From: Bryobacterales bacterium
Lineage (GTDB): Bacteria; Acidobacteriota; Terriglobia; Bryobacterales; UBA6623
Direction of reading: 5' to 3'
DNA: 64,000 nt
Assembly (NCBI GenBank): GCA_963422375.2
Contig: OY729427.2
Location: forward strand, 6,430 to 70,429
A program made the translations under genes and the position numbers. Of the stretch, positions 31,426 through 49,990 are shown one piece after another. How positions within the stretch are numbered: position 1 is the stretch's first letter; the number at the start of each line of letters is the position of its first letter. The notes under the pieces are model-generated. The model was not told where the DNA came from. It worked only from the letters and a program-made list of their open reading frames with translations, and did not search any database.

Positions 31426-31680
31426 CTACCTCCCGTTGCCTCGCATGAGGTCGCGTGCCGCGAACTTGTCCGGCGAGCTGCTGGCGTTCGCGACCAGTTC
31501 CCGGTAGTGAAGCAGCACGTTGCCAGCAACTAGGGCCTCTCCGCGCTCGCGGAAGTACTCCTCTCGAATGGTGACGGCGGCGCGCATCGCCCGGTCTCGA
31601 AGAGCATCGTGCGGCGTCGGCCGACCGACTGATCTCGGGCAATGAATACAGACAGCGGGCAGTTCCGACTCGCGCGCCGT
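31426..31680 (-). pseudogene. Possible Uma2-family endonuclease remnant interrupted by ISKra4-like copy A
   Basis: ...RPTPHDALRDRAMRAAVTIREEYFRERGEALVAGNVLLHYRE...SSPD... parallels ...AIRDAAAMLAHYFERREDVLVANNLLVYYVE...VPDV... of the Uma2 gene at 44940..45866. Confidence 0.35.
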
Positions 31681-33290
31681 CAGCGGTTCTAGATTTGGCC
31701 GTCAAGGGGGTGCGTGAACGTTGTTTCGGAGGATGAGGTGAATAAGTTGACCGAGAGGTTGCGCTCCCGAGGCCGCCCCGCGGGAGCGTCGGACGGCGGG
31801 CAGGGCCGTGGCGCGGCCCGCGTCGCGAGTCCGCGGAGTGCCGAGCCCGCGGCCGGACGCACTCCGGCGGTAGCCGGCTTTGACGGCCGGCCGCTCGCCG
31901 GACGCTGCCGGCACGAGACTGCGTGGAGTCCAGGCCCCGGCCGCCTGGCAGCCCGGAGGCGCGCGTCCGGCGCGCACCGCCGCCAGCAGCGTCGGCCGGT
32001 CCGGGAAGCGGAACCAGCGCAGCGCGACCTGCAGCTCCCGGAACAGGGCGCGGCGCGTGACTGGCTGGCGCCGGCACTGCTGCCACAGCGCGCAGACGCA
32101 CTGCAGCACGGCGCGGAGCGCGAAGGCGAACAGGTTCGGCACGGCCGGCACGTTGGCCAGCCCTTCCTTGCCGTGCCCGAAGTTGCGCTTGCAGTTGCGG
32201 CCGTGCCGCGCCAGGCAGTTGAAGCCCTCGTTCTCGATCTGCCAGCGCGCCCGGCCGGCCCGCGCGATCGGCTCCGCGTTGTCCGCGGTGACCGCGAGAC
32301 CGGTGGAGAAGCTGCTGGCGCAGGTGCGCTTGCCGTCGCGCTCCACGGCGTACTCGATCCAAGTGCCCTGCAGGGCGTCGCGGCCCTTGCGCAGGAGCAC
32401 CGCGGCCGTCCGGCGGAAACGGTGCCGCTCGGACCGCTTGCCCTTCCCGCGCCGCGGCGGCCTCGCAGACCGACTGGCAGCAGTACAGGTCGTCGCCCGG
32501 CAGGACGGGGCGGCAGGCCTGCAGCCAGGCGCCGCGAGCGGCGAGCCAGCGCTTGGCGGCGTTGCGCTCGCAGTCCCGCTTGCGCTCGTCCTCGCTCATG
32601 TCGGCGCGGGTCGCGGCCGCGTCCTGCTGCGGGCGCACGAACTCGCGCATCAGCGGCAGGACCGTGGCGTGGCCGTCGGCCACCGCGGTGGCCGCGACCA
32701 TGGTGTGGAAGTGATGCGGCCGGCGCTCGCTGCCGACGCGCCGCACCGAGCACTGCGGGCAATGCACCCTGTCGGAGCGGTGGAACCGGACGCCGTCCGG
32801 AGCCGCCGGCAGGCGCTCGTCGAGGCGCTGGAAGGGCTCGAGCGCGCCCTGCGCGGCCACGGTTGCGAGGCACCGCCGGAACGGCGGGTCGAACGCGGCC
32901 GGGTCGCGGTCGTCGAGCAAGTTGCGGATCCGGTTGTCGCAGGGGATGCGGCCCGCGCCGCACAGGGTCCGGCAGTTGGAGCGCGAGCCGTCCCGCTCCA
33001 TGCGTCGCTGGAACGCGAGCAACGACTCGCACCGGGTGCAGAAGCAGGCCGGGGCGCACCAGGGCGCAACCGGCGGCGTCGCTGACCTCGTAGCGCTTGT
33101 TGCTGCGACCCTCGCGCCGGTCGGGCCGGCCGGCGGCCGTCTCGCGGAAGGCGCTCGGCAGCGCGTCCAGGACATGGGGCATTTACCCTAGCTCACAAAT
33201 TCCGCAAGCAAAAGTCAAGTGCCAGACTGCCTTCGACACCTTTCTCAGACACTCTGGAAATCCCAAAATGCCCAAATTGAGAATCGCTGG
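31681..33290 (-). mobile_element. ISKra4-like IS, copy A (defective: internal ~120-bp deletion)
   Basis: Terminal IRs are CCAGCGATTCTCAATTTGGGC / CAGCGGTTCTAGATTTGGCC. A perfect 8-bp direct repeat CGCGCCGT sits at 31673..31680 and 33291..33298. The transposase pieces (MPHVLDALPSAFRET..., ...ESLLAFQRRMERDGSRSNCRTLCG..DCERNAAKRWL..., ...RARWQIENEGFNCLARHGRNCKRNFGHGKEGL...) lie in three frames. Confidence 0.8.
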
Positions 33291-38624: not shown

Positions 38625-41464
38625 CTAGCGCCGGCTGGCCCGCGGGCCCCACTGGGTCGCCTCGAGAAAGGCTAGGAGGTCGGCCAGGTCGCCGCGGCTG
38701 ACCTGCTCGGCCAGCCCGGACGGCATGGCAGAAACGGTGCCCGGACGGATCTTCTCGATCTCCGAACGCGCGAGCCACGCTTGGCTCTCAGCGTCCAGGG
38801 CCAGCAGAAGGTGCGTGTCGCTCTCCTCGAGCACCACTCCGTTGAGGCTCTGGTCGGCGGTGACTGCGACGACGGGCTCGAAGCTGCACACGAAGCTCGC
38901 GCTCGGGTAGACGATCGCTTCGAGCAGGTCCCTGCGCTCGCGAATCTGCCCGATCCGGGTCAGATCGGGGCCGATCTTCCCTCCTTGGTAGCCGATCGCA
39001 TGGCAAGCCATGCAGGCGGTCTCGGCGCTATTGAAGACAGCCTGACCCCGCACGACATCGCCCGGCGGAAGCGAGTCGAGCATCCGGTCGATCATGGCGT
39101 TCTGTTCGGCAAGCCCGGCGACCTCGCCCACGAGGAGAGCGTCGACCCGTTCGCGGACCCGAGGCGGGAACCCCCGCGTGGCGGAGGCGGCGACATCGGC
39201 ACGCAGGTTGGCGAGGCCGCGAGCCTGCGACAAACGGTCCGCGAACCGCGCCCCGACCTCGGCATCGTCGGACCGGCGGAACGCTGCAACGATCCGCGGC
39301 AATTCCATCGGTCCCACTTCGGGCAGCAGGTCCGCCAGATCCAGGAGCTGGTCGCGGTTCAGCGGCGCCTCCGACAGCACGGTGGCAGCGGCGGCCCTAT
39401 CTCGGACCGCGCCCGACGGGTGAACCTCGCCGACAGCCAAGGCGTACAACGCAGGATCGAGACCCCCGAGAGAAGCAGCACCGGCGGCCAGCGCCCGAAT
39501 CCGGATTGATTCGGCGACCGCCGGATCGCTTGCCACACCGAGCAGCGCGGCATCCAACCGCGGCAATACTTCGTCCGGAGGCGGCATTCCGCGTGCCGCC
39601 CGCAGGGCGGCTTCGACCGTGTCCTTCCGTCCGAGCGCAACCGCGATCGTGGCTTCCCAGCCGTCCGGGACCTCGTCCACGGACGCGCCCGCCATGGCCT
39701 CCAGCGCCACTTGTCTCGCCTGCGCCCCGCTGTCGCCGCGGGCCGTGCCGGCCAGCAACGCCTGGATCGAGGGGTTGCCCGCGAAACTCTGGAGCTGCCC
39801 CTCCAGATCTCCGGGCTCCGCAATGGGCCGCTCTCCGAGCCTTCCTGCCAGATACCCGGACAGCGCCCCGCCCCACTCCGGGTGGCGGGAGGCGATCCAG
39901 CTGGCAGCATCCGAGATCAGGGGTTCGGGCGAGCGCAGCAGCGGAAGCACGGTGTCGGAACCGAGCACGGCCGGGCGCATCTGATCCAAGGCGATTAGCG
40001 CGGCCCGGCGAGTCCGGGCGGACAGGGACGACAGGCCGGCCCTCGTGGCGCGAGGATCGGCGATCTCGATCAGGGCATACACCAGCGAGTGCGTCAGGAC
40101 CTCGCCCTCGGCGCGACCCGCCGCCTCGAGCAAAGGACCGACGGCGGACGAATCGCCGATCCGGCCCAGAGCCTCCGCCGCCGCCCTCTTGACTGCGTCC
40201 GAGGAGTCCTCGAGGAGGTCCAGCGCGGCCCCGGCACCCCTTGCGCGCGATGCAAGGCGACCGCGTTGAGAGCCGCATGACGCACGCTTGCGGACTCGTC
40301 CGAAAGGGCCGTACGCACGGCGTCGCGCGCCTCGGCGGATTCGATTCTGGCAAGGGACCATACGGCGTTCCGACGCGCTTCGAGCGACGGGCCGTCCTTC
40401 AGTGCCCGGGCGAGTTCATCCACGGGCTCTGTCGCGACCGAGGCTGTCAAGACCTTCCTGCGCACCCCGGGCCGGGGATCGCCCAGCAGTTCGACGAGGG
40501 CCGCGGAGCCGGCGTCCGACCAGTCGATCGCGCTTCCGCGCGGATCCTGCGGTGCGAACGCGCCGCGCTCGCGGATACGGTAGATGCCGCCGAGCAGGTC
40601 CGGCTTGGACAGCTGCGCGGTAGGGCAGCAGAGCTTGTCCAAGCCCCGGTGTCAACGACAAGCAAGCTTCCGTCCGCGTCCTCCATGACGTCCGTCGGAT
40701 GGAAGTCCCGGCTGCCCGAGACCAGGAAGTCTTCATCCTCCGTCACGAAGCTGGCTCCGCTCGGCACGAGCCGGTGGGACGTGACCTTGTTCAGGTTGAA
40801 TGACGTGGCGAAGAGGCGGCCGCGGTAATCGTCGCCGAACTGGCTCGACTCGTACCGGGCGAGACCGACCGGAGCTGCGCCGCCCATGTGCGTCATGACC
40901 GACAGGTAACCGCCGGTCATCGGATGGCCGTCGGTGACGCCGTGAACCTTGCCGTAGACGCCGCCGTACACGGCATGGACGATGCCGTCCCGCCGGCCCA
41001 GCTGCGGGTGAACTAGGAAGGTCGACGTGAGCAGCCTCTCGCCCTCGGGGGTGAAGGCGACCTCCACCGGGTTGTCCATGCCACCCGTCAGCACCGCCTC
41101 GACCGGGCCGCCGCCCGGGCGACGCCTGAATACATGCGCCGCCCGGGTCACGAGCGGCTCCCGCCCGGGCCGCTCGTAAGTCTGCTCGGCGAAGGCACCC
41201 TTCGTCCAGTAGATCCGGCCGTCCAGCCCGAGATACGGCCCGTGAAGGTCGTTGGCGCAGTTCGTCAGGGTCTTGGCGTCGAACCACTCCTCCCGCTCGT
41301 CCGCCACGCCGTCCCCGTCCGTGTCGGTGAGCTTCCAAATGCTCGGCGGAGCGGCGACGTAGACCGAGCCGTCGTGCCAGAGCACGCCCTCTGGAAGCAT
41401 CATCCCATCGGCGAATACCGTACGCCTGTCGTAGCGCCCGTCGTCGTCAAGGTCTTCGAGCAGT
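38625..41464 (-). pseudogene. PVC-type heme-binding (CxxCH) / HEAT-repeat / membrane-bound-dehydrogenase-domain protein, main body; split by the composite transposon and carrying two frameshifts
   Basis: ...LLEDLDDDGRYDRRTVFADGMMLPEGVLWHDGSVYVAAPPSIWKLTDTDGDGVADE..., ...VVDTGAW/DKLCCPTAQL..., HEAT-like repeats (VRHAALNAV, AVKRAAAEALGRIGD), C-terminal ...GQAVFNSAETACMACHAIGYQGGKIGPDL... These span three frames (track ORFs 40447..41403, 40094..40642, 38625..40361). Confidence 0.8.
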
Positions 41465-42478
41465 CAGCGATTCTAAATTTGGCCATCAACGGGGTGCGTG
41501 AACGTTGATTAGCTGATTATGAGGATGAGATGAACCACTTTACCGAGAGGTCGCTCTAATAAGGCTGCCTCGCGGGAGCGTCGGACGGCTGGCAGGGCCG
41601 TGGCGCGGCCGCCGCAGCGGGTCGGCCGAGTGCCGAGATCGCGGCCGGACGCGCCCCGGCGGTAGCCGGCTGCCACGGTCGGCCGCTGGCCGGACGCTGC
41701 CGGCACGAAGCTGCGCGGAGTCCAGGCCCCGGCCGGGGTCGGCCGGCAGCCCGGCGGCGCGCGTCCGTCTCTCACCGCCACCAGCAGAGTCGGCCAGTCC
41801 GGGAAGCGGAACCAGCGCAGCGCGGCCTGCAGCTCCCGGAACAGGGCGCGGCGCGTGACTGGCTGGCGCCGGCACTGCTGCCACAGCGCGCAGACGCACT
41901 GCAGCACGGCGCGGAGCGCGAAGGCGAACAGGTTCGGCACGGCCGGCACGTTGGCCAGCCCTTCCTTGCCGTGCCCGAAGTTGCGCTTGCAGTTGCGGCC
42001 GTGCCGCGCCAGGCAGTTGAAGCCCTCGTTCTCGATCTTCCAGCGCGCCCGGCCGGCCCGCGCGATCGGCTCCGCGTTGTCCGCGGTGACTGCGAGACCG
42101 GTGGAGAAGCTGCTGGCGCAGGTGCGCTTGCCGTCGCGCTCCACGGCGTACTCGATCCAAGTGCCCTGCAGGGCGTCGCGGCCCTTGCGCAGGAGCACCG
42201 CGGCCGTCCGGCGGAAACGGTGCCGCTCGGACCGCTTGCCCTTCCCGCGCCGCGGCAGCCAGCCGGTCGAGCGCACCGCGCCGCTCCCCCGCCGGCTCTC
42301 CGGCACCTCGTGCAAGTGCTTGCGGGATCCGGGCTTGCCTACCCGGATGTAGTCCATGCCGGCGGCCTCGCAGACCGGCTGGCAGCAATACAGGGGAATT
42401 ATATATCTGAGTGCCGAGGGAATCAAGTCGGCAAATTATCAAGCCATTATAAAATTTCATATTTCTTCCGACTTTCCG

Positions 42479-42508
42479 TTGACATTATATGGTGTTTCTT
42501 GGTAGAAT
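42479..42508 (+). promoter_or_regulatory. Sigma70-like promoter of the IS1595 transposase
   Basis: TTGACA (42479) - 18 nt - TAGAAT (42503), in the AT-rich left end, ~25 nt upstream of ATG 42532. Confidence 0.45.
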
Positions 42509-42531
42509 AGTTCCAGTAAGGGATACCGTAA

Positions 42532-43398
42532 ATGAAGAAACCAGGTCCCGGAAAGTGGTTCCGTAAAGGCATCACATTGATCGAAGTGATCGCCATGTTC
42601 CCCGATGACGAATCCGCGGAAAAGTGGTTCGCCTCCATGCGCTGGCCGGACGGTCCCGCGTGCCCCCGCTGCCGCGGCTCCAGCGTGCAGTCCGACGCGG
42701 CCCACCCTTCGATGCCGTACCGTTGCCGCGGCTGCGGCAAGCGCTTTTCGGTGCGCACCGGCAGCGTGATGGCCGACACCGAGCTCGGCTACCGCACCCG
42801 GGCCGTCGCCCTGTTCCTGCTGACCACCGGCATCAAGGGCGTCTCGAGCATGAAGCTGCACCGCGACCTGGACATCAGCCAAAAGTCGGCCTGGCACCTG
42901 GCGCACCGCATCCGCGCGTGCCGGGAGCGGGATCGGGGCCCGTTCGCCGGCCCGGTGGAGGTGGACGAGACCTGCGTCGGCGGCAAGGAACGCAACCAGC
43001 ACGAGAGCAAGAAGGCCCGCGCCGGGGGCGACCTGCAGGGCTTCGTGCGCGGCCGGGTCGCGCCGGGCGCGCAGCTCTACTCCGACGAGGCGGCGGCCTG
43101 CGCCGGCATGGCGGAGTTCACGCACGAAGCCGTCAGGCACTCCGGCGGCGAGTACGTGCGCGGGGCAGCGCATGCGAACGGCATCGAATCGTTTGGGTCC
43201 CTGTTCAAGCGCGGCCTGTACGGAACCTATCACCGGATGAGCGTCCGTCATCTCGGCCGCTACCTCACGGAGTTCGCGGGACGGCGCAACGACCGCGACT
43301 GCGACACGGAGGAACAGATGCGGCGCATGGCGCGGGGCTTGGTCGGCCGGACGCTGACCTGCCGGCAGCTGACCGGCAAGGCCGCGGTCGCGGCCTGA
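42532..43398 (+). CDS. IS1595-family transposase (N-terminal Zn-ribbon + ISXO2-like DDE domain); ~30-aa internal deletion relative to copy 2
   Basis: ...WPDGPACPRCRGSSVQSDAAHPSMPYRCRGCGKRFSVRTGSVMADT...VEVDETCVGGKERNQHESKKA...YSDEAAACAGM...ANGIESFGSLFKRGLYGTYHRMSVRHLGRYLTEFAGRRN... Confidence 0.85.
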   Translation: MKKPGPGKWFRKGITLIEVIAMFPDDESAEKWFASMRWPDGPACPRCRGSSVQSDAAHPSMPYRCRGCGKRFSVRTGSVMADTELGYRTRAVALFLLTTGIKGVSSMKLHRDLDISQKSAWHLAHRIRACRERDRGPFAGPVEVDETCVGGKERNQHESKKARAGGDLQGFVRGRVAPGAQLYSDEAAACAGMAEFTHEAVRHSGGEYVRGAAHANGIESFGSLFKRGLYGTYHRMSVRHLGRYLTEFAGRRNDRDCDTEEQMRRMARGLVGRTLTCRQLTGKAAVAA

Positions 43399-44685
43399 GC
43401 GGCGCCCGCCGCGCCGAGCGCGGCAGCCCGCCGCGGGCGCGCGCTGCACGCTCGGTACGAGGGGTGCACCGGATCCGGAAGGCCCCGGCGCGACCCCGGT
43501 CCGGTCCGGACCGGCCATGCAGGCCGTCGAGCGCCGGGGATCCGCTGTCTTCGGCCCTCGCAGGGCCTGCAAGCGGCTTGCAAGGGGTGCCCTGCCACCG
43601 CCAACCGGGTTCCACCGGGGCAACCGGGGCATGCGCGGCGGCCTCTCTAGTCCCTTCCTCATCAAATCCGCTGGCAGGCTCGATTCAGATACGATCCCAC
43701 ACCCCACCCCTCTGTGCCCGCCGCGGCCGCACTCGCATGACCCCAGCTCGACACCCACCTCCCTGCTCACAGCAGTTCTAGTCGGACCATGGCGTTGTCG
43801 GCACTCAGATATATAATTCCCCAATACAAGTCGTCGCCCGGCAGGACGGGGCGGCAGGACGGCATCCAGTCGCCGTGCGCGGCGAGCCAGCGTTTGGCGG
43901 CGTTGCGCTCGCAGTCCCGCTCGCGCTCGTCCTCGCTCATATCGGCGCGGGTCGCGGCCGCGTCCTGCTGCGGGCGCACGAACTCGGGCATCGGCGGCAG
44001 GACCGTAGCGTGGCCGTCGGCCACCGCGGTGGCCGCGACCATGGTGTGGAAGTGATGCGGCCGGCGCTCGCTGCCGACGCGCCGCACCGAGCACTGCGGG
44101 CAATGCACCTTGTCGGAGCGGTGGAACCGGACGCCGTCCGGAGCCGCCGGCAGGCGCTCGTCGAGGCGCTGGAAGGGCTCGAGCGCGCCCTGCGCGGCCA
44201 CGGTTGCGAGGCACGGCCGGAACAGCGGGTCGCACGCGGCCGGGTCGCGGTCGTCGAGCAAGTTGCGGATCCGGTTGTCGCAGGGGATGCGGCCCACGCC
44301 GCACAGGGTCCGGCAGTTGGAGCGCGAGCCGTCCCGCTCCATGCGCCGCTGGAACGCGAGCAACGACTCGCACCGGGTGAAGAAGCAGGCCGGGGCGCAC
44401 CAGGGCGCAACCGGCGGCGGCGCTGACCTCGTAGCGCTTGTTGCTGCGACCCGCGCGCCGGTCGGGCCGGCCGGCGGCCGTCTCGCGGAAGGCGCTCAGC
44501 AGCGAGTCCAGGACATGGGGCATGCACCCTAGCTCACACATTCCGCTAGCAAAAGTCAAGTGCCAGACTGCCTGCGACACCTTTCTCAGACACTCTGGAA
44601 ATCCCGGAATGCCCAAAATTAGAATCGCTGGACGGAGCCCCTTAGGGCCGTCCGAGTCACCCGCTGGTCCCTCCGGATCTAATTA

Positions 44686-44940
44686 GTGCTTGTGACAAAA
44701 CCCCTGAACTCTGGCCTGATCAGCATTTCATACTACATCCTGATGTCGGATGGATCTCCAAACACAACATATAGGGTCCAAGGTCGGAAGTTGCTCAGCC
44801 GCCAATCGCGAAGATTTCCGCGCTCTACCCAGAATTGGCAGGATTTTGGACTAGTCGTAGCATTCCAGCGAAATCTTCGCCTTGAGAGATTGGACCTAAT
44901 GCCTTTTTTGTCAAGGGGATACGAGTTTTTTCACGGGCAC
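44686..44940. mobile_element. 255-bp AT-rich MITE, copy 1
   Basis: Imperfect terminal IRs GTGCTTGTGACAAAAC / GTGCCCGTGAAAAAAC (13/16). It is flanked by the 6-bp direct repeat TAATTA (44680..44685, 44941..44946). A second copy lies at 62765..63019. Confidence 0.7.
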
Positions 44941-45866
44941 TAATTAGAGCGTCGCAGCACCTCTAGCTGCCGCTCCGCCTCCCTCCACCGGCGCTCGGCC
45001 TCTTGCCGCGCCCGCGCCTCCTCGACCCTCTGCCGCGCCTCTTGGTCCCGCTGGCGCTCGGCCTCTTGCCGCGCTCGCGCCTCCTGGCCCACCCGGCGCT
45101 CGGCTTCTTGGCGCGCGCGCGCCTCCTGGTCCACCCGGCGCTCGGCCTTCTGGCGCTGCCGCGTCTCCTCGACCCGCGCCCGCGCCTCCTCGCTCAGCGT
45201 CCGCAGGTATTCCCCCCTGACCGGATCCCAGATGCGCAGGCGCTGCGCGATGCCGTCGTAGCGCAGGTCCAAGCCCAGCACGGCGCTGCGGACGGACAGT
45301 TCCGCGCCGGGCAGGCGTTCGGCCGGCAGCGGCTCGTAGCGGCCGCCCTTCAGGCGGTCGCCCGCCAGGCGCGCCGGCAGCAGGCCGCCCATCGGGTCGT
45401 ACCGGAAGTATTCGCGCACCCCCAGCCGCGCGTACAGCGGCGGCTTCTCGTGCAGGTCCGCGTCGACGGTGCCGGGAGAGGCGACTTCCAGCACGAAGTC
45501 CGGGGGCTTGCCCTCCTCCCACACGAAATAGGACATGCGATTGTCTCCCGGAACGCCCAGCGACACCATCACGTCCGGGACGACCCTGCGCTTGGGACGA
45601 TTCTCGACGTAGTACACCAGCAGGTTGTTGGCCACCAGCACGTCCTCGCGCCGCTCGAAGTAATGGGCCAGCATGGCCGCTGCATCGCGGATCGCCCTTT
45701 CCTGGAAGGTGTTGTCCGCCATCGGCCGACCGTCCGAGCTAGGGTACTGCGCCTCGGCTGCCGCAGGCTGCGGGGCGCGCCACCGCGGAGGGGGCGGGTC
45801 CGTCGGCGCGCGGCGGTCGCGGGCCGGGGCGAGCGGCGGGAATTGGTCGATCTGCTTGCCCGGCAT
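44940..45866 (-). CDS. Uma2-family (DUF820) endonuclease with C-terminal 14-aa tandem-repeat coiled coil
   Basis: ...YPSSDGRPMADNTFQERAIRDAAAMLAHYFERREDVLVANNLLVYYVE..RRVVPDVMVSLGV...PDFVLEVASPGT...YARLGVREYFRYDP... The C-terminus has (EARARQEAERRVxQ)n. The stop TAG spans the MITE end and its target duplication. Confidence 0.8.
   Translation of the reverse strand: MPGKQIDQFPPLAPARDRRAPTDPPPPRWRAPQPAAAEAQYPSSDGRPMADNTFQERAIRDAAAMLAHYFERREDVLVANNLLVYYVENRPKRRVVPDVMVSLGVPGDNRMSYFVWEEGKPPDFVLEVASPGTVDADLHEKPPLYARLGVREYFRYDPMGGLLPARLAGDRLKGGRYEPLPAERLPGAELSVRSAVLGLDLRYDGIAQRLRIWDPVRGEYLRTLSEEARARVEETRQRQKAERRVDQEARARQEAERRVGQEARARQEAERQRDQEARQRVEEARARQEAERRWREAERQLEVLRRSN
45000..45190. repeat. 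In-frame 42-bp tandem repeats (about 3-4 units) in the Uma2 gene 3' region
   Basis: Units start at 45076 and 45118 (CGCGCCTCCTGG(C/T)CCACCCGGCGCTCGGC...), with degenerate units on both sides. Confidence 0.7.
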
Positions 45867-46076
45867 GCGGCCTGGCGACCGGTCGCTTCGGTGCCGACAC
45901 AGTATAGCGGATTAGTGCGGGGAGGCTCCCCCGGAGCGGCGGGCCGGAGCATGACGGGCCGCGAGGCGGCACGGCTCGGCTGACGCGGGTGCTCCGGGCG
46001 GCGAGCGAGACGCTGGTCGGCAGGCTCAGCCGGGCGCGGGCGGTCGGTTCGGTAGGGACGCGCCCGTGTTGCGCCG

Positions 46077-47650
46077 CAGCGGTTCCAAATCTGGCCGTCA
46101 AGGTGGTGCGGGAACGTTGCATAGGCGGACTAGGCGAACCACTTGACCGGGAGGTCGCGCTAGCGAGGCCGCCCCGCGGGAGCGTCGGATGGCTGGCAGC
46201 CCGGCGGCGCGTCCGTCTCGCACCGCCGCCAGCAGAGTCGGCCGGTCCGGGAAGGGGCACCAGCGCAGCGCGGCCTGCAGCTCCCGGAACCAGCCGCGGC
46301 GCGTGACCAGCTGGCGCCGGCACTGCTGCCACAGCGCGCAGGCGCACCGCAGCACGGCATGGAGCGCGAAGGCGAACAGATTCGGCACGGCCGGCACTTC
46401 GGCCGGCACGGCCTTGCCGTGCCCGAAGTTGCGCTTGAAGTTGCGGCCGTTTCGCGCCAGGCAGCTGAGCCCCTCGTTCTCGATCTTCCGGCGGGCCCGG
46501 CCGGCTCGCGCGATCCGCTCCGCGTTGTCCGCGGTGACCGCGAGACAGGTGAAGAAGCAGTTGGCGCAGGTGCGGATGCCGCCGCGCTTCACGGCGTACT
46601 CGATCCAGGTGCCCTGCATGCGGTCGCGGCCACGGCGCAGGAGCACCGCGCCTTACCGGCGGAAGCGGTGCCGCTCGGACCGCTTGCCCTGCCCGGGGCC
46701 GCGGCAGTCAGCCGGTTGATCGCACAGCGCCGCTCGCCCGCCGGCTCTCCGGCACCTCGTACAAGCGCTTGCGGGATCCGGGCTTGCTTAGCGGGATGCA
46801 GTCCATGCCGGAGGCCTCGCAGACTGGCTGGCAGCAGTACAGGTCCTCGCCCGGCAGGACGGGACGGCGGGCCTGCAGCCGGGCGCCGTGCGCGGCGAGC
46901 CAGCGCTTGGCGGCGTTGCGCTCGCAGTCCCGCTTGCGCTCGTCCTCGCTCATGTCGGCGCGGGTCGCGGCCGCGTCCTGCCGCGGGCACGCGAACTCGG
47001 GCATCAGCGGCGGGACGGTGCCATGGCCGTCGGCGACCGCGATGGCCGTGACCAGGGCGTGGAAGCACTGCGGACGGCGCTCGCTGCCGACGCGCCGCAC
47101 CGAGCCCTGCGGGCAATGCACCGTGTCGGAGCGGTGGAACCGGACGCCGTCCAAAGCCACCGGCAGGCGCTCGTCGAGGCGCTGGAAGGGCTCGAGCGCG
47201 CCCTGCGCGGCCGCGGTTTGCAGGCGCAGCCGGAACAGCGGGTCGAACGCGGCCGGGTCGAGGCCGTCGAGCAAGTTGCGGATCGGGCTGTCGCAGGGGA
47301 TGCGGCCCACGACGAACAGGGTTCGGCACTCGGAGCGGGCGCCGTCCCGCTCCATGCTCCGCTGGAACTTGAGGAATGACTCGCATCGGGTGCAGAAGCA
47401 GGCCGGGGCGCACCAGGGCGCAACCGGCGGCGGCGCTGACCCCGTAGCGCGTGTTGCGACCGGTGCGACGGTCAGGCAGGCCGGCGGCCGTCTAGCGGTA
47501 GGCGCCCAGGAGAGAGTCCAAGACATGGGGCATACATCCCAACTCACAATATCCGCGAGGAAAAGTCAGGTGCCTGCCTGCGCCAGACCGCCTTCGACAC
47601 CCTCCTCAGACACTCTGGAAATCCCGGAATGCCCCTATTTGGAATCGCTC
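46077..47650 (-). mobile_element. ISKra4-like IS, copy C (most diverged, multiple stops, no target duplication)
   Basis: The ends are CAGCGGTTCCAAATCTGGCC... and ...CCCCTATTTGGAATCGCTC. The transposase pieces (46098..46646, 46708..47547) are homologous to copy D but degraded (MPHVLDSLLGAYR*). Confidence 0.7.
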
Positions 47651-48030
47651 GTCAAGTCCTGAAGCAAGGACATCTAGGTTGTAGATTCCGACTTCCCAAT
47701 TCATATTCTGAATGAATCGTTCGCTCCTTCCTAAGAATTCGACTTGTGCATTGGGCGGCTCCACAACGCTCGCCAGGTTCCGGAGCTTGACCAGGACACG
47801 GACCTCGTCATGGAAGCGGCGCACTCCATCCTCGTATGACTCCGTCCAAGCCAGGCCTCGCGGGCACATTGCAGAATGGTCTCCCAGCGCCGGCTCCGTT
47901 GGCATATACTCCTTGATCTCCACGGTATCTCCCAGCCTGTCGTGACGCGCACGATCCCGAAACCGCCCTGCCCGATCAGTCGGAGCAAGGTGTACCCGTG
48001 CAGGGATGTGCCGGGGCTTAGCGTGTCCTG
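47651..48030 (-). pseudogene. N-terminal fragment of a Ser/Thr protein kinase, frameshifted and truncated by ISKra4 copy C
   Basis: ...LSPGTSLHGYTLLRLIGQGGFGIV (Gly-rich loop), then in another frame VEIKEYMPTEPA...FHDEVRVLVKLRN... The GC content is lower than the surroundings. Confidence 0.45.
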
Positions 48031-48246
48031 AGGTATATCGCTGTTAGCGCTGGTCCTCGTTGTCTCGGTCGCGCGCCCCGAAGTGCCAGTTCGAGGATGG
48101 CCGCTACGCAACCAAGACCGTGACTCTCGGGTGTCCGGCAGGCTCGTGCCCGGCGGACGCATCTGCTCGCAGAGTTGATCTGACCTAGCGGCTGGAGAGC
48201 TCGCGCACGCTTGATCGTCATGCGCCGGACTAATTCTAGCCGGCGG

Positions 48247-49980
48247 CCAGCGATTCTCAATTTGGGCATTTGGGGATTTCCAGAGTGTCTGAGAAAGGTG
48301 TCGAAAGCAGTCTGGCACTTGACTTTTCCTTGCGGAATTTGTGAGCTAGGGTGTATGCCCCATGTCCTGGACTCGCTGCCGAGCGCCTTCCGCGAGACGG
48401 CCGCCGGCCGGCCCGACCGACGCGACGGTCGCAGCAACAAGCGCTACGAGGTCAGCGACGCCGCCGGTTGCGCCCTGGTGCGCCCCGGCCTGCTTCTGCA
48501 CCCGGTGCGAGTCGTTCCTCGCGTTCCAGCGGCGCATGGAGCGGGACGGCTCCCGCTCCAACTGCCGGACCCTGTTCGGCGTGGGCCGCATCCCCTGCGA
48601 CAACCGGATCCGCAACTTGCTCGACGACCTCGACCCGGCCGCGTTCGACCCGCTGTTCCGGCCGTGCCTCGCAACCGTGGCCGCGCAGGGCGCGCTCGAG
48701 CCCTTCCAGCGCCTCGACGAGCGCCTGCCGGCGGCTCCGGACGGCGTCCGGTTCCACCGCTCCGACAGGGTGCATTGCCCGCAGTGCTCGGTGCGGCGCG
48801 TCGGCAGCGAGCGCCGGCCGCATCACTTCCACGCCATGGTCGCGGCCACCGCGGTGGCCGACGGCCACGCCACGGTCCTGCCGCTGATGCCCGAGTTCGC
48901 GTGCCCGCAGCAGGACGCGGCCGCGACCCGCGCCGACCTGAGCGAGGACGAGCGCAAGCGGGACTGCGAGCGCAACGCCGCCAAGCGCTGGCTCGCCGCT
49001 CAGGGCGCCTGGCTGCAGGCCTGCCGCCCCGTCCTGCCGGGGGACGACCTGTCCTGCTGCCAGCCGGTCTGCGAGGCCGCCGCGGCGGCCGGCATGGACT
49101 GCATCCGGGTAGGCAAGCCCGGATCCCGCAAGCACTTGCACGAGGTGCCGGAGAGCCGGCGGGGGAGCGGCGCGGTGCGCTCGACCGGCTGGCTGCCGCG
49201 GCGCGGGAAGGGCAAGCGATCCGAGCGGCACCGTTTCCGCCGGACGGCCGCGGTGCCCCTGCGCCAGGGCCGCGACGCCCTGCAGGGCACTTGGCTCGAG
49301 TACGCCGTGGAGCGCGATGGCAAGCGCACCTGCGCCAACAGCTTCTTCACCGGTCTCGCGGTCACCGCGGACAACGCGGAGCGGATCGCGCGCGCCGGCC
49401 GGGCGCGCTGGAAGATCGAGAACGGGGGCTTCAACTGCCTGGCGCGGCACGGCCGCAACTTCAAGCGCAACTTCGGGCACGGCAAGGAAGGGCTGGCCAA
49501 CGTGCCGGCCGTGCCGAACCTGTTCGCCTTCGCGCTCCGCGCCGTGCTGCAGTGCGTCTGCGCGCTGTGGCAGCAGTGCCGGCGCCAGCCGGTCACGCGC
49601 CGCGCCCTGTTCCGGGAGCTGCAGGTCGCGCTGCGCTGGTTCCGCTTCCCGGACCGGCCGACGCTGCTGGCGGCGGTGCGCGCCGGACGCGCGCCTCCGG
49701 GCTGCCAGCCGGCCAGGCGGCCGGGGCCTGGACTCCGCGCAGTCTCGTGCCGGCAGCGTCCGGCCAGCGGCCGGCCGTCAAAGCCGGCTACCGCCGGAGT
49801 GCGTCCGGTCGCGGGCTCGGCACTCGGCGGACCCGCGACGCGGGCCGCGCCACGGCCCTGCCCGCCGTCCGACGCTCCCGCGGGCGGCCTCGGGAGCGCA
49901 ACCTCTCGGTCAACTGATTCACCTCATCCTCCGAAACAACCTTCACGCACCCCCTTGACGGCCAAATTTAGAACCGCTGG
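48247..49980 (+). mobile_element. ISKra4-like IS, copy D (longest copy)
   Basis: IRL is CCAGCGATTCTCAATTTGGGC and IRR is GGCCAAATTTAGAACCGCTGG. There is no direct repeat of its own flanks: the left flank is ...GCCGGCGG and the right is CGAGCAGT. Confidence 0.8.
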
Positions 49981-49990
49981 CGAGCAGTAA
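48362..49990 (+). CDS. ISKra4-like DDE transposase (copy D), main frame; true N-terminus MPHVLDSLPSAFRET... starts at 48355 in another frame
   Basis: ...ESFLAFQRRMERDGSRSNCRTLFGVGRIPCDNRIRNLLDDLDP...RVHCPQCSVR...DCERNAAKRWLAA...RARWKIENGGFNCLARHGRNFKRNFGHGKEGLANVPAVPNLFAFALRAVL... The low-complexity tail reads 10 nt past the IS end because of an 8-bp insertion relative to copies A and B. Confidence 0.7.
   Translation: MSWTRCRAPSARRPPAGPTDATVAATSATRSATPPVAPWCAPACFCTRCESFLAFQRRMERDGSRSNCRTLFGVGRIPCDNRIRNLLDDLDPAAFDPLFRPCLATVAAQGALEPFQRLDERLPAAPDGVRFHRSDRVHCPQCSVRRVGSERRPHHFHAMVAATAVADGHATVLPLMPEFACPQQDAAATRADLSEDERKRDCERNAAKRWLAAQGAWLQACRPVLPGDDLSCCQPVCEAAAAAGMDCIRVGKPGSRKHLHEVPESRRGSGAVRSTGWLPRRGKGKRSERHRFRRTAAVPLRQGRDALQGTWLEYAVERDGKRTCANSFFTGLAVTADNAERIARAGRARWKIENGGFNCLARHGRNFKRNFGHGKEGLANVPAVPNLFAFALRAVLQCVCALWQQCRRQPVTRRALFRELQVALRWFRFPDRPTLLAAVRAGRAPPGCQPARRPGPGLRAVSCRQRPASGRPSKPATAGVRPVAGSALGGPATRAAPRPCPPSDAPAGGLGSATSRSTDSPHPPKQPSRTPLTAKFRTAGEQ

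Follow-up and report, generated by a model that had tools for sequence, protein, structure and literature searches.

The closest described systems are the composite transposons Tn5 and Tn10, in which inverted copies of an IS4-family element (IS50 and IS10, respectively) surround passenger DNA. The locus described here lies in a window of 64,000 nucleotides from the genome of a Bryobacterales bacterium and resembles them in several ways. Two inverted IS copies enclose passenger DNA, ends of one type are used at both borders ('outside' ends in Tn5 and Tn10, two IRR ends here), and the target duplication has a length of 9 bp. An IS4-type DDE_Tnp_1 fold may be shared as well, as suggested for the present IS by weak HMM matches of its intact relatives only. 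There are also clear differences from Tn5 and Tn10. The present arms are approximately 94% identical and of unequal age, which counts against a composite reading, since classical composites have near-identical arms. The transposase genes of the block are all broken, so that transposase would have to be supplied in trans, and the cargo, made up only of IS debris and a Uma2 nuclease gene, carries no selectable gene. The present block is known from its sequence rather than from an experimental hop.

The block extends over 8,515 bp (41465..49979), with an outward-facing IRR-type end of a ~1.73-kb IS at both borders (Table 1), as the preliminary description had proposed. Read from 41465, the outer left end is CAGCGATTCTAAATTTGGCCATCAACGG; the reverse complement of the outer right end, which terminates at 49979, is CAGCGGTTCTAAATTTGGCCGTCAAGGG. 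Both are R-type termini, with inverted repeats that read CAGCG(A/G)TTCTAAATTTGGCC. Copy B (41465-44634, including a nested IS1595-family element) and copy D (48248-49979) belong to one IS family and share 94% identity, or 91.5% when the outer ends are aligned (B 41465-42394 versus D 49979-49048). All four structural features of a composite transposon are found here, namely bracketing IS copies, outward ends, a unit-level duplication and a target restored on removal. We thus consider, with a probability of roughly 85%, that the block entered a heme-binding gene as a single unit, by way of two IRR-type ends. It is an ordinary composite transposon, a known kind of element, and points to no new mechanism.

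Table 1. Features of the composite block and of the gene that it interrupts (positions in the window).
Feature	Position	Strand	Remarks
Target-gene body, residue 82 onward	38625..41464	-	DUF7133/TIGR02604 N-domain, HEAT repeats, C-terminal CxxCH domain TIGR02603
Left duplication copy TCGAGCAGT	41456..41464	.	Original target sequence; conserved Glu codon kept
IS copy B, R-end half	41465..42392	-	Outward IRR terminus at 41465
IS1595-family element nested in B	42393..43822	+	Perfect 23-bp inverted ends GGGGAATTATATATCTGAGTGCC; 6-bp duplication AATACA
IS copy B, L-end half	43829..44634	-	Inner IRL terminus at 44634
49-bp spacer	44635..44683	.	Runs into the Uma2 gene without a break at the paralogous locus C3:77098-78113 (identity 94-95%)
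MITE, 259 bp	44684..44942	.	Genomic BLAST depth about 60-68
Uma2-family (PF05685) putative endonuclease gene	44940..45866	-	308 aa, repeat tail
IS copy C, degraded	46077..47649	-	89.7% to consensus; no target duplication
Probable Ser/Thr kinase gene, 5' fragment	47650..48247	-	LIGQGGFG...IKEY motif; frame-broken; cut off by copy C
IS copy D	48248..49979	+	1732 bp, 98.0% to consensus; outward IRR terminus at 49979
Right duplication copy GCGAGCAGT	49980..49988	.	First base unlike left copy
Target-gene 5' part, first 82 codons	49989..50233	-	Signal peptide and start of N-domain

The octamer CGAGCAGT is present at 41457-41464 and again at 49981-49988, and had been described as a perfect 8-bp duplication. 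The IS terminus is at 49979, and base 49980 (G) sits between this terminus and the 8-mer. A genome-wide survey gave 9 bp as the duplication length of the IS family, with 15 solo copies perfect at 9/9. The proper comparison for the composite is therefore TCGAGCAGT versus GCGAGCAGT, which agree at 8/9. The shared 8-mer thus stands, but as part of an imperfect 9-bp duplication, or of an 8-bp one with an odd base beside it; the solitary copy A, also credited with 8 bp, actually has 9 bp (GCGCGCCGT). This 8/9 agreement, when all 15 solo duplications are perfect, counts against the composite reading. The odd base adjoins the D terminus and equals the base predicted beside D at its earlier site (the G of GCCGGCGGC). 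The 8-mer does not belong to the IS terminus itself, since the flanks of about 90 other ends are all unlike it. Taken singly, neither copy has matching flanks, in agreement with the initial observation: TCGAGCAGT and GACGGAGCC around B match at 1/9, GCCGGCGGC and GCGAGCAGT around D at 5/9.

Excision of 41465..49988 rejoins the interrupted gene in frame (...AERPHSILLLEDLDDDGRYDRRTVFADG...), with ...GTCTTCGAGCAGTAATATGC... as the predicted empty-site joint. The in-frame junction noted earlier could thus be confirmed: the restored protein has a single TIGR02604 match (residues 32-354), which crosses residue 82, where the two parts join, without a break. When this protein was aligned with 12 orthologues from the same genus, no gap appeared, and the identity across the joint was 82-90%. 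The scores are above the cut-offs for TIGR02604 (173.8 bits, cut-off 122.2) and TIGR02603 (86.5 bits, cut-off 68.15), as is required of a PVC-type heme-binding CxxCH protein. The PVC host that was implied does not hold, the relatives being Bryobacterales MAGs, like the host itself (Acidobacteriota). In same-genus genomes, the orthologues are single open frames of ~1030-1170 aa, and a protein search listed over 100 intact homologues of ~1030 aa. The gene body contains two further frameshifts, near 40637 and near 40225, so read-through requires excision and two frame corrections. The insertion inactivated the gene, the two frameshifts having been gained since or present before, and the target gene is a pseudogene. 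Both these frameshifts and the cargo twin described below were absent from the preliminary description. A 28-mer from the restored joint, searched for exactly, had no match in JGI metagenome contigs, and no near-identical intact allele above 89% identity was found among 5.8 billion proteins.

The cargo between the arms amounts to ~5 kb, mostly junk DNA, in which the Uma2-family gene is the sole intact gene. The nested IS1595-family element of copy B includes a transposase ORF (42532-43398) and has a genomic BLAST depth above 100; without it, B measures ~1734 bp and is 94.7% identical to the family consensus. Copy C has two frame breaks relative to a 451-aa relative, and the terminal base of its L end is altered. 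The cargo list first drawn up is borne out for the nested IS1595, the MITE, the Uma2 gene and the degraded third IS copy; the kinase fragment had no HMM match in profile searches and is assigned from its Gly-loop motif only.

Most of this cargo has a 99.9% identical twin on contig C2, the repeated stretch being 3.3 kb long. The inner flank of D runs on unbroken in this twin, and the continuation sequence is missing beyond the outer end of D, which indicates that D travelled with its inner flank. The cargo paralogy, on C3 as on C2, ends exactly at the inner ends of the IS copies, as a composite takes only the DNA between its ends. The C2 twin was considered as the ancestral donor site and rejected, because its flanks are neighbouring genes in relatives and the C2 copy is thus itself an insertion. 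Searches of the genome and of public data gave neither a second copy nor a donor site of the 8.5-kb composite, nor an empty-site allele, which counts against the composite reading. At C2:2267947-2274995 lies a second composite-like block, with outward-facing L ends on both sides and a duplication that agrees at 8/9. Its flanking genes are adjacent in three relatives, a support by gene order only; a base-level empty site was not obtained, the intergenic DNA not being conserved in these relatives.

The region looks indeed like a nested pile-up, with an IS1595 in B, a MITE and a decayed copy C, and approximately half of the solo IS copies of the genome no longer have a duplication, which points to frequent recombination between IS copies. 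It could thus be proposed that one ordinary IS insertion grew through nested insertions and recombination between IS copies, and that the block never moved as a unit. However, an ordinary insertion places its duplications beside one L and one R end, and two R ends are observed here. Homologous exchange within IS copies keeps terminus and flank together; a duplicated flank is never shifted from an L to an R end, and the R/R pair is therefore not derivable from one ordinary L/R insertion. Moreover, the cargo paralogues continue past the inner IS ends elsewhere, so these inner flanks come from other loci. Such a history appears improbable, and the only simple explanation is transposition as one unit on two like ends. 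This reading, put forward initially, is upheld by the gapless alignment of the restored gene, by the family-length duplication and by the R/R flank logic.

A mis-join during assembly, through an IS copy or the 3.3-kb C2-like stretch, would mean that B and D do not flank one block. The genome does provide the material for it, with more than 50 copies of the ~1.73-kb IS, two IS1595-type elements each at a BLAST depth above 100 and the near-identical repeat inside the block. Nevertheless, B, C and D differ mutually by 6-12% and are easily told apart, and the assembly consists of 3 contigs only, implying long reads. The gene halves are co-oriented and the duplication lies exactly at the outer termini, which is not expected of a random mis-join. 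Even with the halves at separate loci, the R/R duplication would imply the same original event. We regard such an artefact as slightly less probable still than the previous scenario. Searches for alternative contigs with the exact products of genes at or near the junctions returned nothing on record, and one contig at low coverage in the same metagenome assembly (ERZ25070844 ctg5624) does no more than duplicate C1:878603-891774. Finally, a coincidental 8-mer match in a gene split by unrelated events is hardly credible. Among 2000 end pairs in this GC-rich genome, two non-neighbouring, non-cognate ones do reach at least 8/9 (~1e-3 per pair), but once the block and 9 bp are taken out, the gene matches every orthologue in frame and without a gap, and coincidence would have to account for the repeat as well as for the exact codon register.

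Members of the ISKra4 family are of comparable size overall, encode one DDE transposase and, in some cases, make 9-bp duplications. The present IS shares these three features, but differs in that the NF033572 model (cut-off 205 bits) has no match genome-wide (E<=0.01) or in intact relatives (E<=0.1). The initial 'ISKra4-like' label is consequently abandoned; relatives carry the name ISNCY family and may be of the DDE_Tnp_1 type. The PF01609 cut-off of 23 bits is reached by three of the five intact relatives scanned (P0032, 28.0; P0035, 25.0; P0013, 23.0), which also match PF13808 weakly, short of the cut-off of 32.3 bits for that model. No match was given by the broken transposase copies of the window itself, and no NCBIfam ISNCY model was matched by the intact relatives scanned. 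These relatives, of ~451 aa, are 36-40% identical to cyanobacterial plasmid genes annotated as ISNCY family transposase (for example in Nostoc punctiforme NC_010632); one metagenomic relative is likewise named, and the name-bearing relatives span 36-45% identity. The nearest transposase relatives outside the genome are ~58% identical. The 9-bp duplication and CAGCG termini agree with the 9-bp duplications and CAG... ends of the ISMae2 group in ISfinder. Assignment to the ISNCY/ISMae2 group is a lead. A literature search on IS expansion in sponge Acidobacteria gave nothing specific to this IS family.

In the mechanism that we propose, transposase would pair the R-type ends of the inverted copies B and D, everything between them would be excised or copied, and integration would occur in codons 80-82 of the ~1030-aa TIGR02604/TIGR02603 gene, opened by a staggered cut of 9 bp. 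The chemistry may be cut-and-paste, by analogy with the IS4-superfamily Tn5 and Tn10, and the one mismatch in the duplication probably reflects a later point mutation. Transposase would be supplied in trans, since B is split by IS1595, C is decayed and the frame of D is broken near codon 36. Single-frame IS copies do exist elsewhere (C1:735104-736816, C2:2273265-2274995 and C2:3484226-3485932). At least eight IS copies carry a nested IS1595-type insertion at an identical site, and a 2659-bp copy among these eight or more is surrounded by a perfect 9-bp duplication, which makes trans-mobilisation plausible. A more speculative view, to which we give little credence, is that pairing of like ends, R/R in this block and L/L on C2, may be routine for this ISNCY-type family and driven in trans, and that the odd base may be a cleavage footprint 1 nt outside the end rather than a mutation. 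If this were true, DNA caught between any two copies would turn mobile.

Three points in the annotation of the region are corrected, namely how the IS family is named, how long its duplication is and that the target is a pseudogene. For a poorly characterised IS family, the locus provides a case of composite transposition resolved to the base pair; the termini and the duplication length of the family are now fixed and like-end pairing is demonstrated, at the level of probability given above. In this IS-saturated genome, probably that of a sponge symbiont, it offers an example of how DNA is shuffled and genes are killed.

Copy D of a ~1.73-kb insertion sequence (IS) was used as BLAST query against the window and the whole 6.0-Mb assembly (contigs C1, C2 and C3), which holds more than 50 copies, mostly 97-98% identical to the consensus. 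Alignment of about 90 termini defined the left (L) end as CAGCGATTCTCAATTTGGGCAT... and the right (R) end, reading inward, as CAGCGGTTCTAAATTTGGCCGTCAAGG.... Since the base outside ...CCGCTG varies among termini, D ends at 49979 and not at 49980, the position proposed in the preliminary description. Copies B and D are mutually inverted, with both R-type ends pointing outward, and bound a block of 8,515 bp (41465..49979).

IS copies of the window and the element nested in copy B
Feature	Position	Orientation	Remarks
IS copy A	31678-33288	minus	
IS copy B	41465-44634	minus	split by nested IS1595-family element
Element nested in B	42393-43822		1430 bp, IS1595-family; 6-bp duplication AATACA
IS copy C	46077-47649	minus	89.7% identical to consensus; without duplication
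IS copy D	48248-49979	plus	

The nine bases beyond each recognisable IS terminus in the genome were compared, giving 2000 low-side/high-side pairs. Fifteen solo copies are flanked by direct repeats that agree at 9/9 positions, so the IS makes 9-bp target duplications, not 8-bp ones; copy A, formerly credited with 8 bp, is among them (GCGCGCCGT). The flanks of the block, TCGAGCAGT (41456-41464) and GCGAGCAGT (49980-49988), are identical at 8/9 positions, and those of B by itself and of D by itself are unrelated, as already reported. A score of at least 8/9 was found for only two non-neighbouring pairs of the 2000, the chance being about 1e-3 per pair. The "perfect 8-bp duplication" described earlier is the matching portion of these flanks: the 8-mer does stand on both sides, but the duplication is a 9-bp one with a mismatch. 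This 8-mer lies beside the end of no other copy among the ~90 aligned termini, and is thus not part of the IS terminus. Because the left duplication copy retains a conserved Glu codon, the mismatch is ascribed to the G at 49980, adjoining D's terminus. The 9-mer flanking D on its inner side (GCCGGCGGC) would have come directly after D's R end in the earlier location, and it too begins with G; this match could be a coincidence or a footprint of the donor flank.

About 17 solo copies lack any repeat, and none shows 7/9 or 8/9. Full-length solo copies are likewise divided, about half without a duplication and the rest perfect, with no intermediates (e.g., C1:561918-563649 and C2:230378-232136). 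This pattern points to copies having exchanged flanks widely through recombination, or else to additional composite or one-ended events.

Removal of 41465-49988 (the block and one duplication copy) puts ATG 50233 in frame with the body of the target gene. Over the 420 aa of the restored N-terminal part, TIGR02604 scores 173.8 bits (cut-off 122.2) in a single stretch, residues 32-354, across the joint at residue 82; TIGR02603 is found in the downstream 578-aa frame. In whole-genome searches, most same-genus genomes have one unbroken frame of ~1030-1170 aa, 81-87% identical. Twelve orthologues align with residues 31-140 of the restored protein with zero gaps (ERPHSILLLEDLDDDGRYD vs ERPHSILRLEDxDGDGRYD), in agreement with the proposed junction. 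More than 100 intact homologues of ~1030 aa were listed by a search of 5.8 billion proteins; none of the listed matches is more than 89% identical to the restored protein, hence no public empty-site allele from this strain. The gene body has two further frame changes, near 40637 (a 1-nt deletion outside any homopolymer, TGG-AC-AAG vs W-Y-K of orthologues) and near 40225. Given these and the insertion, the target gene is a decayed pseudogene, its decay beyond the insertion being an addition to the earlier account. No second orthologue was found by a whole-genome search. The label "PVC-type heme-binding" holds for the protein family; PVC is, however, only an NCBIfam family name that makes no statement on the host, and the records with orthologues are Bryobacterales (Acidobacteriota) MAGs, which places the host in the Acidobacteriota and not in the PVC group. 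Several relatives are presumably sponge-derived, as their isolate names resemble those of such MAGs.

The R/R ends, the 8/9 flanks and the gene restored in frame uphold the composite-transposon insertion. In its simplest history, a transposase would have paired B's R end with that of D, and then inserted all the DNA between them. Mis-assembly as the source of this structure is unlikely, since B, C and D are 6-12% apart in sequence and the junction logic is self-consistent. After ordinary insertion, one duplication copy lies beside an L end and the other beside an R end. Recombination between homologous IS copies, evidently frequent in this genome, acts inside the elements while termini stay with their own flanks, so that an L/R pair never becomes R/R. 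Intramolecular replicative inversion would flip half of the target gene, and no such flip is present. Synapsis of two R ends would give the geometry of Tn5 and Tn10, in which two "outside" ends are used. No second copy, donor site or empty site of the composite was found in the genome or the public data searched. Since B and D differ in identity to the consensus (94.7 and 98.0%), the two arms are of unequal age, and not sister copies.

The cargo gives independent support for a one-unit move. The segment 44943-48249 is 99.9% identical over 3.3 kb to C2:2735107-2738370 (two substitutions and one 42-bp repeat unit), where the sequence is unbroken at the point matching D's inner end. Similarly, C3:77098-78113 is a paralogue of 44635-46076 (94-95% identity) that runs on beyond both the inner end of B and the R end of C. 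As both paralogues continue, the DNA beside the inner ends came from elsewhere, cut precisely at the IS ends as passenger DNA would be. The C2 twin comprises a Uma2 gene, IS copy C and a kinase 5' fragment; between the loci, identity drops to only ~95% in the MITE next to this stretch. No IS copies flank the twin. Its neighbours, a symporter gene on one side and an oxidoreductase/MtnA pair on the other, adjoin each other in two relatives (G003 and G004), which marks the twin as an insertion in its own right. Some 13 Uma2-like loci exist in the genome, four of them within 250 bp of an IS copy (e.g., window 31426-31680 and 44940-45866, C2:3311380-3311766); since one of the four is the cargo gene's twin on C2, three cases are independent. 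This proximity could reflect target preference or hitch-hiking.

In a second block, C2:2267947-2274995 (7049 bp), it is the L ends that face outward on both sides, and the flanks form a duplication matching at 8/9 positions (GGCCATACC / GGCCATGCC). Inside it are one IS copy interrupted by two nested elements, a stretch of ~1.1 kb of unique DNA, and a second IS copy, inverted, intact and single-frame; the genes flanking the block are direct neighbours in three relatives (G007, G015 and G022). This block, backed by gene order rather than a base-level empty site, supports like-end pairing as a habit of the family. Each block has one duplication mismatch and the 15 solo duplications have none, which, in this small sample, fits older events.

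Transposase frames were tested by tblastn with an intact 451-aa relative. The frame of D breaks near codon 36, as it does in many other copies; in C there are two breaks, and in B the IS1595 element interrupts the frame. Across the family, many copies break at about codon 33-40 (window 48355-48500) and others at about codon 157-159; a few are single-frame, such as C1:735104-736816, C2:2273265-2274995 and C2:3484226-3485932. Transposase action in trans is plausible. At least eight copies carry the same nested ~1.05-kb IS1595-type insertion (D-coordinates 49104/49111, same 8-bp overlap); the multiplication of this 2659-bp derivative (e.g., C2:413280-415938), one copy having a perfect 9-bp duplication, is evidence for trans mobilisation of defective elements.

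The mobile-element load of the genome is extreme, with BLAST depths of ~100-120 for the element nested in B, ~100 for the ~1.05-kb IS1595-type element (ends CCTGATTACC...) and ~60-68 for a 259-bp MITE (44684-44942). A low-coverage 13-kb metagenome contig (ENA ERZ25070844, ctg5624_2x_l), 99.96% identical to C1:878603-891774 with one IS copy included, is probably a strain variant or redundant contig of the same sample.

The IS ORFs of the window have no Pfam or NCBIfam match. Intact relatives (~451 aa, at most 58% identical) match PF01609 (DDE_Tnp_1) and PF13808 weakly, and the IS4/ISAs1/IS701 models far under their cut-offs. The former ISKra4-like label is abandoned, as model NF033572 has no match in the whole genome. 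The annotation "ISNCY family transposase" is borne by relatives encoded on cyanobacterial plasmids and by one protein from a metagenome; ISNCY/ISMae2-like is a candidate assignment for the IS, a lead drawn in part from such names. The composite is a member, not previously described, of a well-known kind of element, and is useful for the annotation and characterisation of this IS family.
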